Assembly: GCF_058153355.1 (NCBI RefSeq)
Contig: NZ_CM177019.1
Direction: 5' to 3' (one strand)
Length of the DNA stretch: 64,000 nucleotides
Positions within the stretch are counted from its first letter, which is position 1. Every line of letters begins with the position of its first letter. A program made the position numbers and the translations under genes. This document shows positions 21,082 through 23,325 of the stretch, piece after piece. The notes beneath the pieces were generated by a model. The model was not told where the DNA came from and did no database searches. It saw only the letters and a list, made by a program, of their open reading frames with translations.

Positions 21082-21393
21082 ATGCCTGGAAAAACAGTCG
21101 CTCTACCCGATATCGATAAAACGCTGAAAAATGCGCGGGTTGAACTCAAAACCAGTCCCGACGCCAAAAACAAACTTCGTGAAGCTGCGCAAGCCGTTGG
21201 GGTAGATTTAAGCGCTTTTATTTTGAGCGCAGCTATGGAACGCGCCGAAAGTGTGCTTGATAACCAACGTCGCCGTGAGCTTTCGAATCAAAGCTGGGAA
21301 CTGATGAACCAACTCATCGCTGAACCTGCTCAACCGACGCTCGCCCTCAAGGCGTTAATGAAAAGGAAAAACAGCGATGGTCGACAAGCATGA
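21082..21393 (+). CDS. DUF1778/ribbon-helix-helix type II antitoxin (TacA/AtaR-like), 103 aa
   Basis: ORF 21016-21393 trimmed to ATG 21082, which follows SD AAAGAGG (21071-21077); small protein with the SAFIL...A..AE.VL pattern typical of DUF1778 antitoxins; 17-nt overlap with downstream GNAT gene. Confidence 0.75.
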   Translation: MPGKTVALPDIDKTLKNARVELKTSPDAKNKLREAAQAVGVDLSAFILSAAMERAESVLDNQRRRELSNQSWELMNQLIAEPAQPTLALKALMKRKNSDGRQA

Positions 21394-21919
21394 AGAGATT
21401 ACTCTGCCCATAGTCCTCTCCTGTAATTATCAGTCTGATATTACTTATCCTGGGCAAAAACAGTTTGATTGCGGTAACCCTGTTATCGATAAATTTGTAC
21501 GCGCATCGCTAAAGAAAAGTGTGCGTAATAGCGACTGTGCTGCTAAAGCACTTATTGACAGACAAAGTGGTGAACTGATTGGCATCTGTACTTTTACGGC
21601 ATATTCGCTGGAAAAACAACGCGTTTCTGGCGTCCTTCAGGGTTCACAACCTTCAGAGATTGGTGTTGTCAGATTAGTCATGTTAGGGGTAGCGCGGAAA
21701 TATCAAAAGCGGGGCTTTGGTCAGGACCTACTATGTGATTTTTTTGAACATGTAAAAATAATTCACCGGGCATTACCAATTAAAGGGGTTTATCTTGATG
21801 CTGACCCTGCCGCCATTAACTTTTATACTCGTCTCGGCTTTGTTCAGCTTTCAGCGAGGCCCAATGTTTTCGGTGCTGTACCGATGTTTTTAGCGATTCA
21901 GCATATTCTCGCGGCTTAG
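21377..21919 (+). CDS. GNAT-family acetyltransferase toxin (TacT/AtaT/KacT-like), 180 aa
   Basis: N-terminal FDCG motif, acetyl-CoA binding RKYQKRGFGQ (Q/R-x-x-G-x-G), C-terminal FYTRLGF with conserved Tyr; translationally coupled to the upstream antitoxin. Confidence 0.8.
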   Translation: MVDKHEEITLPIVLSCNYQSDITYPGQKQFDCGNPVIDKFVRASLKKSVRNSDCAAKALIDRQSGELIGICTFTAYSLEKQRVSGVLQGSQPSEIGVVRLVMLGVARKYQKRGFGQDLLCDFFEHVKIIHRALPIKGVYLDADPAAINFYTRLGFVQLSARPNVFGAVPMFLAIQHILAA

Positions 21920-22909
21920 ATTATTATCGCCTCCGGCCATGGCAAGTTTTGCCTCAGCCGGGGACTGAGCAGCGTTACCACTTTTGTTCAATTGCCCCGC
22001 TTTCATCAGGTCCACATCCTTGCCTTTAATGGTTGCCGTTGCGGCAACGATTGTGGTCCTTATTGCTGCACAAGATTTTCGTTCAAATTCCGGTTTATAA
22101 AGAATAAGCAACGAATTACTGGTAAATGAATCAAGCCGGTAATCTGTAAAGTTAATATCCAGTCGGTTTAAGCCGAAAGGTGCAAAGCCGACCGTTTGAA
22201 TAGTTTCCTTACCTGACGGACTCTTGATGTTGTACGTAACACGAAGATTGGCCACTTCGCCTAATTTATTGGTTTTGGCAAAGAGGCTATCCATACAGGA
22301 AAAACCTTTATCTAAAAAATTATCCCGCATTCCAGAACGGGTAATCGTGATCACAGGTAACGTATCGTCAACCGTTTTTCTGTCAATCATATCTTTTCGA
22401 CAGGCGGCCATAAAGTCTTCCGGACCAGCATAAATGTGAACACCCTTATCAAGATATTCTTTCGCTTTACTACAATCCACCTCGACATACTGACCATTGG
22501 CGTACATCATGCCCAACCTGGACCATGCTAAATTCACACCGCGTTGCGTAGCCTGATTAAATAACGTATACGCTTTGGCGTAATCCACTCGCACCTGTTC
22601 ACCTTCGTAGTAGATATTCCCCAGCGCTAACGGAGCTTCTTCATCACCTTGTTTAGCGGCTAACTCGAACCATTTAATGGCTTCCTGAACGTTGGGTTTG
22701 GTATCGTAGCGGGGCTGATAATATTCCCAGCCTAACAGGCTTTGCGCGTCGACATCCCCCGACTCAGCCATTTTATGCAGTGTCCTTATCACATCGGGGG
22801 CAGGCTTTTCACTGTATATGCTGTCATACAATTCATGCGCTTTCTCGCTTGCCAGTGAACCTTGTGAGGCAATTAATAAAATAGCCAATAAACTCTTTTT
22901 ATTTAACAT
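21890..22909 (-). CDS. secreted Sel1-repeat (TPR-like) protein with ~170-aa C-terminal domain of unknown function
   Basis: 339 aa; signal peptide MLNKKSLLAILLIASQGSLA; Sel1-like repeats (AQSLLGWEYY..., EAIKWFELAAKQGDEEAPLALGNIYYEG, AKAYTLFNQATQRGVNLAWSRLGMMYANG); 3' end overlaps GNAT gene 3' end by 30 bp. Confidence 0.7.
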   Translation of the reverse strand: MLNKKSLLAILLIASQGSLASEKAHELYDSIYSEKPAPDVIRTLHKMAESGDVDAQSLLGWEYYQPRYDTKPNVQEAIKWFELAAKQGDEEAPLALGNIYYEGEQVRVDYAKAYTLFNQATQRGVNLAWSRLGMMYANGQYVEVDCSKAKEYLDKGVHIYAGPEDFMAACRKDMIDRKTVDDTLPVITITRSGMRDNFLDKGFSCMDSLFAKTNKLGEVANLRVTYNIKSPSGKETIQTVGFAPFGLNRLDINFTDYRLDSFTSNSLLILYKPEFERKSCAAIRTTIVAATATIKGKDVDLMKAGQLNKSGNAAQSPAEAKLAMAGGDNNLSRENMLNR

Positions 22910-23325
22910 AAATAACTTTTATGCATCCATCACTATATTTTTCAATATACCTAACCACCAAACATCCACTTCATGAATAAATACACAGCCATAACAACCT
23001 CAGGTAATAAGTAAACATTTAAGCTGAAGCAGAATAACCAGCACCTCCAACACCTCTATTTATTACGATAAAATAACATCATCCTTTAATAAAAAATCAC
23101 ACGCTCATCAACAAATCCGAAAATAATATCATTCGTGGCAGGATAAAATCAGGTGAGCTTTTCATTTGTTATATTTAACACACAAAGTATTAATGGCAAG
23201 AATACGAGAGAAGCGCATGCCTGACGTAAAAATCACGCTCTTATGTAATATTTACTCATTAACACTCTGTTTACCCAACATGCGCTCCGCACTACACTAT
23301 GTGGGCAATTTTTTAAGAGGTGGTA

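Follow-up and report, generated by a model that had tools for sequence, protein, structure and literature searches.

Introduction

IrmA (C1275; PF18673; PDB 5ek5), the interleukin receptor mimic protein A of uropathogenic Escherichia coli, is a secreted protein whose fold resembles that of fibronectin type III domains (FNIII-like). It is a stand-alone, 13-kDa protein, encoded in the agn43-yeeR-irmA operon on pathogenicity islands and found in culture supernatants. It forms a domain-swapped dimer via a long C-terminal tail and binds interleukin (IL)-2, IL-4, and IL-10; its Cys21-Cys80 disulfide was singled out in the IrmA structure paper as unusual among FNIII-like folds. In this report, we examine a window of 64,000 nucleotides (the whole stretch of DNA that was analyzed; NCBI RefSeq assembly GCF_058153355.1, contig NZ_CM177019.1), and we find that a gene on its minus strand, present as an open reading frame (ORF) at positions 21890-22909, encodes a protein having an apparent signal peptide, Sel1 repeats, and a C-terminal domain that is likely a remote homolog of IrmA. 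Carried by a quarter of complete E. coli genomes, this protein is labeled in RefSeq as a “tetratricopeptide repeat protein” only.

Two other described systems bear on this locus. For the Sel1 half of the protein, the best sequence match in the Protein Data Bank (PDB) is EsiB/c5321 (PDB 4bwr), a protein of 467 residues that matches only residues 43-147 of the query; other Sel1 proteins are HcpC (PDB 1ouv) and LpnE (PDB 6deh). The gene that converges on ours belongs to ItaR/ItaT, a characterized type II toxin-antitoxin of E. coli HS that is also found in BL21(DE3) and whose toxin, ItaT, acetylates Ile-tRNA-Ile (PMC6125619); the structure of ItaT(G115D) is PDB 7BYY (PMC7367177). Taken as a whole, our account is that the gene encodes a 311-residue, exported Sel1/IrmA-like protein, that it is frameshifted in this window, and that it is independent of itaRT. 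We hold this account to be probable.

Domain organization of the protein

The features of the ORF are as follows.

21890-22909, minus strand: Sel1/IrmA-like ORF with a frameshifted 3' end, 339 residues (ORF list, base comparison)
22850-22909, minus strand: putative Sec-type signal peptide, residues 1-20 (MLNKKSLLAILLIASQGSLA, followed by SEK), without a lipobox (sequence and hydropathy)
22439-22807, minus strand: Sel1-repeat solenoid, residues ~35-157 (Pfam, predicted model)
21995-22432, minus strand: linker helix and predicted IrmA-like beta-sandwich, residues 160-305, with C170, C205, and C280 conserved; the window lacks the native last strand (residues 306-311)

An earlier, sequence-only reading of this window had assigned to the protein a Sec signal peptide, three or more Sel1 repeats, and three cysteines after residue 165, and these assignments held. 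Read by eye, the N-terminus comprises a basic n-region (MLNKK), a hydrophobic core (SLLAILLIA; Kyte-Doolittle 3.0), and a small-x-small cleavage motif at the end of SQGSLA, with cleavage likely between SLA and SE. Pfam locates three Sel1 repeats (PF08238) at residues 54-89, 95-124, and 131-155 (E 6.6e-7, 2.4e-3, and 5.6e-3, respectively), and the cysteines are C170, C205, and C280. In the predicted model, the Sel1 part consists of eight helices in four pairs, counting the linker helix at residues 166-178, and has the right-handed alpha-alpha solenoid fold of Sel1-like-repeat proteins. A phmmer search returned 17 Sel1 entries of the PDB at E <1e-4 (e.g. EsiB/c5321 and SEL1L), with alignments confined to residues ~35-157; no PDB Sel1 entry aligns past about residue 157. 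Within its family, which is defined by repeated helix-turn-helix units of 36-44 residues, the Sel1 half is unremarkable.

The same reading had placed the C-terminal half in no known family. This description fits the sequence searches of the E. coli protein, which were empty in Pfam, NCBIfam, and the PDB, but predicted structure and transitive evidence point to IrmA. AlphaFold modeled the full protein with a predicted local distance difference test score (pLDDT) of 83.5 and a predicted template modeling score (pTM) of 0.81, and the domain alone, from an 18-sequence alignment, with a pLDDT of 82. The high pTM suggests that the Sel1 and IrmA-like modules pack together in the model. The models display the linker helix and then a seven-to-eight-stranded beta-sandwich (residues ~183-311); as predicted, the domain has the FNIII-like seven-stranded beta-sandwich of the IrmA family. 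Among the structural matches of the domain, IrmA ranked first; the two share 19% identity over 106 of 120 residues, and the runner-up scored three Z units lower. An hhalign comparison of the domain alignment with the IrmA alignment gave an E-value of 0.002 and paired C205 and C280 with C46 and C105 of the IrmA precursor (Cys21 and Cys80 in mature numbering). In the family, C205 is invariant and C280 nearly so; C146, in the last Sel1 repeat, and C170, in the linker helix, are also invariant.

The transitive evidence comes from relatives of the E. coli protein. Scanned singly against PF18673, two family members match at E ≤1e-3 (best 6.4e-5) and four at E ≤0.1. In the group of long paralogs to which P0068, P0070, and up6 belong, three of four members match PF18673 at E ≤0.1, two of these at ≤1e-3, and the long paralogs connect to the E. 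coli domain with E-values of 2e-24 and 6e-22. Fold, disulfide cysteines, and transitive sequence evidence agree, each line being modest, and we conclude that the C-terminal domain is likely a remote homolog of IrmA.

The domain nevertheless differs from IrmA in several respects. It is fused behind Sel1 repeats as the C-terminal half of a protein encoded between cyoE and yajR; beyond the last aligned strand, it has a tail much shorter than the segment swapped in the IrmA dimer; and the E. coli domain falls below any Pfam threshold. Because it is not stand-alone, is not encoded in an agn43 operon, and does not reach the Pfam threshold, we refer to it as IrmA-like rather than as IrmA. The CFT073 island PAI-serX carries an unrelated 378-residue SEL1-like gene and a 180-residue hypothetical gene about 10 kb upstream of agn43-irmA (L007, 34724-36438). 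The Sel1-like gene was considered as a carrier of the same domain and was rejected, since the IrmA-like domain is absent from it.

Relatives and distribution

The family is small: residues 160-311, searched against 1.8 billion representative proteins, gave 25 matches. In the full-length matches (390-598 residues, apart from fragments), the domain is C-terminal and, where checked, lies behind Sel1 repeats. When the domain profile was used for a homolog search, the yield was largely fragments from E. coli and contributed little. Foldseek, run against the AFDB50 database, detected the domain as the C-terminal part of Sel1 proteins in Salmonella enterica (440-617 residues); further occurrences were in E. 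fergusonii, Morganella, Proteus, Pectobacterium, Affinibrenneria, and Achromobacter. When species-representative genomes were scanned with a six-sequence alignment, it turned up in Escherichia, Pseudocitrobacter, Pectobacterium, and Affinibrenneria. Three AFDB entries (A0A0H3MM38, A0A376ZPS8, and A0A6S7AH26) are named “putative zinc-dependent hydrolase” or “secretory IgA-binding protein EsiB”, for which our searches gave no support; such UniProt/AFDB names look like propagated misannotations.

The long Sel1 + IrmA-like paralogs (390-617 residues) occur in the Enterobacterales Pseudocitrobacter, Salmonella, Pectobacterium, Affinibrenneria, E. fergusonii, and Morganella, and additionally in Achromobacter. 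They share the C-terminal domain and the last Sel1 repeats with the E. coli protein and are distinguished by ~170-300 extra N-terminal residues holding more Sel1 repeats; we found none that has been characterized. In Pseudocitrobacter and two metagenome contigs, a long paralog (478-494 residues) lies immediately upstream of the short ortholog at the cyoE-yajR locus (L006, 5001-5978; L003, 4542-6927; L010, 4015-6447). The last ~280 residues of the long forms are the counterpart of the short E. coli protein, which is 41% identical to up6 over 280 residues. On L006, two small ORFs (145 and 144 residues, without a Pfam match) lie between the paralogs, and the first has a signal-peptide-like start. 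A remnant of a long paralog upstream of the E. coli gene was sought with tblastn, which returned the one gene only. Outside the cyoE locus, the gene neighborhoods are mutually unrelated (LysR and AraC regulators, guaAB, and YcaO genes in Pectobacterium, Affinibrenneria, and two further contigs), and gene context therefore gives no hint of a partner. We found no paper that joins IrmA with Sel1 repeats in the relevant sense or that treats the Sel1 gene of the cyoE-yajR locus, and such a fusion architecture seems not to have been described.

The 3' end of the gene

The following features lie at the 3' end of the gene.

21995-21998, minus strand: deletion site, with G4 on the gene strand where each of the 1368 matching complete genomes has G5
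21975-21977, minus strand: native stop codon (TAA) of the 311-residue protein, out of frame in the window
21890-21994, minus strand: out-of-frame tail of 34 codons plus stop, which crosses the inter-gene hairpin and then 30 bp of itaT
21931-21963, strand unassigned: hairpin within the 55 nt that separate the stop of itaT from the native stop of the Sel1 gene, a candidate shared terminator (folding energies)

The window does contain the 339-residue ORF described in the sequence-only reading, and the 3' end of that ORF does overlap the ORF of the GNAT (Gcn5-related N-acetyltransferase) gene (21377-21919) by 30 bp, at 21890-21919. Neither the length nor the overlap is a property of the gene in E. 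coli. The closest genome (L001) is 99.9% identical to the window, with two differences in 2421 bases: a synonymous change at 22295, and one base missing in the window from a C5 run of the plus strand (C4 at 21995-21998), which is G5 on the gene strand. The native stop lies six codons beyond the missing G. Past G305, the reading frame is shifted, and the native ending AIEQKW is exchanged for 34 out-of-frame residues; the 311- and 339-residue forms are identical in their first 305 residues. The RefSeq coding sequences in both L001 and CE10 specify 311 residues and leave 55 nt between their stop and that of the GNAT gene; at the species level the true stop thus lies upstream, where there is no overlap. 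None of the 1368 matching complete E. coli genomes was matched at ≥99% by a 71-nt probe across the deletion site, the best match in complete genomes being 98.6%, equal to a one-base gap. The exact 339-residue protein was found on two or three contigs of the Logan short-read assemblies (e.g. SRR8656992), versus 657 for the 311-residue form.

The ORF overlap with itaT thus exists because one G of the G5 run is deleted; it is a by-product of a rare, probably damaging mutation, and not a regulatory design. Because the conserved last strand (AIEQ), with its G-x-L/I motif, is replaced in the window allele, the frameshifted product is expected to be destabilized or non-functional, and we infer a loss or weakening of function.

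The hairpin between the native stops has a folding energy of -26 kcal/mol on the minus strand (z -3.5) and -20 kcal/mol on the plus strand (z -1.5), without a clean U-tract on either. A hairpin between the stops is the usual layout for convergent genes having a common terminator, and this one is likely a shared (bidirectional) terminator of the two genes. In Pseudocitrobacter (L010), the stops of the same two genes are 36 nt apart. In the window, the frameshifted ORF now translates through the hairpin.

The toxin-antitoxin pair and the accessory island

The neighboring pair is on the opposite strand.

21377-21919, plus strand: itaT, GNAT aminoacyl-tRNA acetyltransferase toxin (PDB 7BYY; PMC6125619, PMC7367177)
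21082-21393, plus strand: itaR, DUF1778/TacA-type antitoxin (RefSeq annotation; PMC6125619)

The GNAT protein of the window is ItaT: it matches PDB 7BYY over all 180 residues (E 1.3e-115) and is nearly identical to the characterized toxin. The antitoxin gene lies upstream and overlaps it (21377-21393), and RefSeq names and the Pfam family TacA1 agree with a DUF1778 antitoxin. The pair and the Sel1 gene are not a traveling unit. Between L001 and CE10, itaRT is 99.6% identical, versus 87% for the Sel1 gene, 97% for cyoE, and 95% for yajR; on the related metagenomic contig L006, the Sel1 genes stand directly beside cyoE with no toxin-antitoxin pair, and on another, L003, the antitoxin gene alone was called at the locus. 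The 99.6% identity of itaRT between flanking genes of 87-97% identity suggests that the pair has spread alone, by recent horizontal transfer or a recombination sweep. We found no paper linking ItaRT to the Sel1 gene; itaT is a neighbor and is not functionally tied to it. A role of the three genes as a defense system was also considered and rejected, as PADLOC gave no meaningful match: ItaT and ItaR had none, and the sole match of the three island proteins was a 40-residue stretch to PtuA (E 3e-4), none passing alone.

The Sel1 gene and itaRT together form a three-gene insertion between cyoABCDE and yajR-yajQ-panE on the E. coli chromosome. The G+C content is 43.7% in the Sel1 gene, 45.6% in the toxin-antitoxin pair, and 34% in the spacer towards yajR, compared with 50.5% in the whole window. 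A 2.4-kb probe found the insertion in 1373 of 5426 complete E. coli genomes, and 1369 of the 5426 carry the Sel1 gene; of the ~1370 matching places, one is on a plasmid rather than on a chromosome. The locus is a low-GC accessory island made of two independent units, itaRT and the convergent gene for the exported protein, and the Sel1/IrmA-like gene is an ordinary accessory gene of E. coli. The AT-rich spacer between the Sel1 gene and yajR (22910-23319) is 410 bp long. A promoter scan found no site on the Sel1 strand and a total not above that of shuffled sequence, and no clear Shine-Dalgarno sequence was seen ahead of the Sel1 ATG. The region might be silenced or regulated.

Alleles, selection, and decay

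Two allele classes of the Sel1 gene exist in E. coli: 18 complete genomes have alleles at least 95% identical to that of the window, and 1351 have alleles at about 88%. The window-type allele also occurs in cryptic Escherichia lineages. Between the classes, the gene diverges by 13% of nucleotides (87% identity), versus 3-5% in the neighboring core genes, and a comparison of window positions 21975-22909 with L002 (5076-6011) gave a dS of 0.37. The dN/dS between the two E. coli alleles is 0.20 in the Sel1 part and 0.21 in the C-terminal domain; these ratios of about 0.2 point to purifying selection on both halves. Judged by its sequence, the gene is real.

It is also repeatedly lost. Shortened forms of 248 residues occur on 197 and 35 contigs, a 198-residue form is represented by 110 member sequences, and only partial copies exist in Shigella sonnei (inactivating E. 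coli/Shigella alleles examined: P0041, P0042, P0014, P0017, and P0055). Independent inactivating alleles are common, and since such forms recur, the gene is dispensable, though under purifying selection. The frameshift of the window is one more decay event of this gene.

Discussion

In the mechanism that we propose, the 311-residue protein would be exported by the Sec pathway to the periplasm, and possibly beyond. Its four conserved cysteines would probably form two disulfides made by DsbA, which fits an extracytoplasmic location. By analogy, a C205-C280 bond would be equivalent to the Cys21-Cys80 bond of IrmA; a C146-C170 bond is a guess. Sel1 solenoids serve as scaffolds for protein binding, and the IrmA fold binds ligands; for these reasons, we suggest that the Sel1 groove and the immunoglobulin (Ig)-like module may act together as an extracytoplasmic binding or adaptor protein on a putative partner.

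Several results weigh against this account. The E. coli domain has no Pfam match even at an E-value of 10, and P0082, up3, and P0079 likewise have none to PF18673. The hhalign probability for the IrmA comparison was only 14%, a narrow, locally built hidden Markov model of the IrmA alignment did not detect the domain, and Foldseek against AFDB50 retrieved the protein’s own family, with no IrmA-family protein among 50 matches at E ≤0.001. PDB sequence searches for the domain, by single sequence and by profile, yielded chance matches only, and NCBIfam gave no domain match on the E. coli protein, although that library is empty even for IrmA itself. The link to IrmA thus rests on predicted structure together with transitive and weak profile evidence, and no conserved neighboring gene in the neighborhoods examined indicates a partner. 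One could argue that the domain is a generic Ig-like/FN3-like sandwich, in an orphan family that converged on a common fold without any specific relation to IrmA. We judge convergence to be unlikely: against it stand the margin of IrmA over the next structural match, the matches of the paralog group to the Pfam IrmA family, the alignment of the unusual IrmA disulfide pair with two conserved cysteines, and the fact that both families are signal-peptide proteins of Enterobacterales. Another alternative is that the protein interacts with the host as a secreted antigen and binds immune molecules there, in the way that IrmA binds IL-2, IL-4, and IL-10 and that EsiB takes its name from binding secretory IgA. 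For either module, a relative from E. coli has been investigated as a vaccine antigen (EsiB for the Sel1 half, IrmA for the C-terminal half), and the divergence between the two E. coli alleles is deep (87% identity). Such a role is still improbable in our estimation, because homologs occur in plant pathogens (Pectobacterium, Affinibrenneria) as well as in Achromobacter, the flanking itaRT has been reported in the commensal HS and in the laboratory strain BL21(DE3), the dN/dS of 0.2 gives no sign of diversifying selection, and the gene is so often inactivated. Its carriers, moreover, include strains labeled AS19-RrmA- and B-DolR.

The remaining alternatives concern the deletion and our reading of the window as holding a decayed copy of a 311-residue gene. 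The sequence-only reading raised the possibility that the 30-bp convergent overlap is functional, with antisense 3' ends that would link the GNAT toxin and the Sel1 gene in their expression. The overlap is physically there in the window, and convergent genes in general can interfere with each other. However, it arises solely from a deletion absent in all 1368 matching complete genomes; the stops normally stand 55 nt apart in E. coli, where a stable hairpin separates them, and 36 nt apart in Pseudocitrobacter; and the histories of itaRT and the Sel1 gene differ, the latter occurring without the pair. Further, it is terminators, not stop codons, that fix transcript ends, and an overlap of ORFs is uninformative about them. 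Coupling is therefore already largely refuted, and we give it very little credence. A different challenge is that the deletion is not biological at all, but a homopolymer miscall in the source assembly of the window. The site is a homopolymer of four to five bases, over 2.4 kb the window departs from the closest genome at just one other position, and the deletion is missing from every matching complete genome. Against this stands the identical 339-residue product on the two or three Logan contigs, although those runs may be of the window’s own strain; in Illumina data, G4/G5 runs are rarely miscalled. A homopolymer miscall could also recur across related data sets, which tells against our account, but we consider the miscall an improbable explanation.

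In this case, an apparent antisense overlap with a toxin gene vanished upon comparison with sister genomes and came down to one missing G, and it may serve as a cautionary example. The analysis also supplies a probable domain assignment for the unannotated half of an E. coli protein and of its relatives in Salmonella, Pectobacterium, and other genera. The link would tie IrmA, a vaccine candidate hitherto described as stand-alone, to a broader family fused to Sel1 repeats, and it yields testable hypotheses on disulfides, dimerization, and ligand binding. This outcome is modest and opens no long-standing question. More tentatively, and with more doubt than confidence, we raise the possibility that the IrmA fold is one branch of a wider, undescribed family of Enterobacterales, in which a disulfide-bonded sandwich is fused to the ends of Sel1 solenoids; such forms, 311 to ~617 residues long, occur in E. 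coli, Salmonella, Pectobacterium, Proteus, Morganella, and other taxa. If ligand binding has been kept by the fused domain, these proteins would constitute a new class of exported two-module binders that act on host proteins or on the cell envelope, and in that case IrmA itself could be a module set free from Sel1 fusions.

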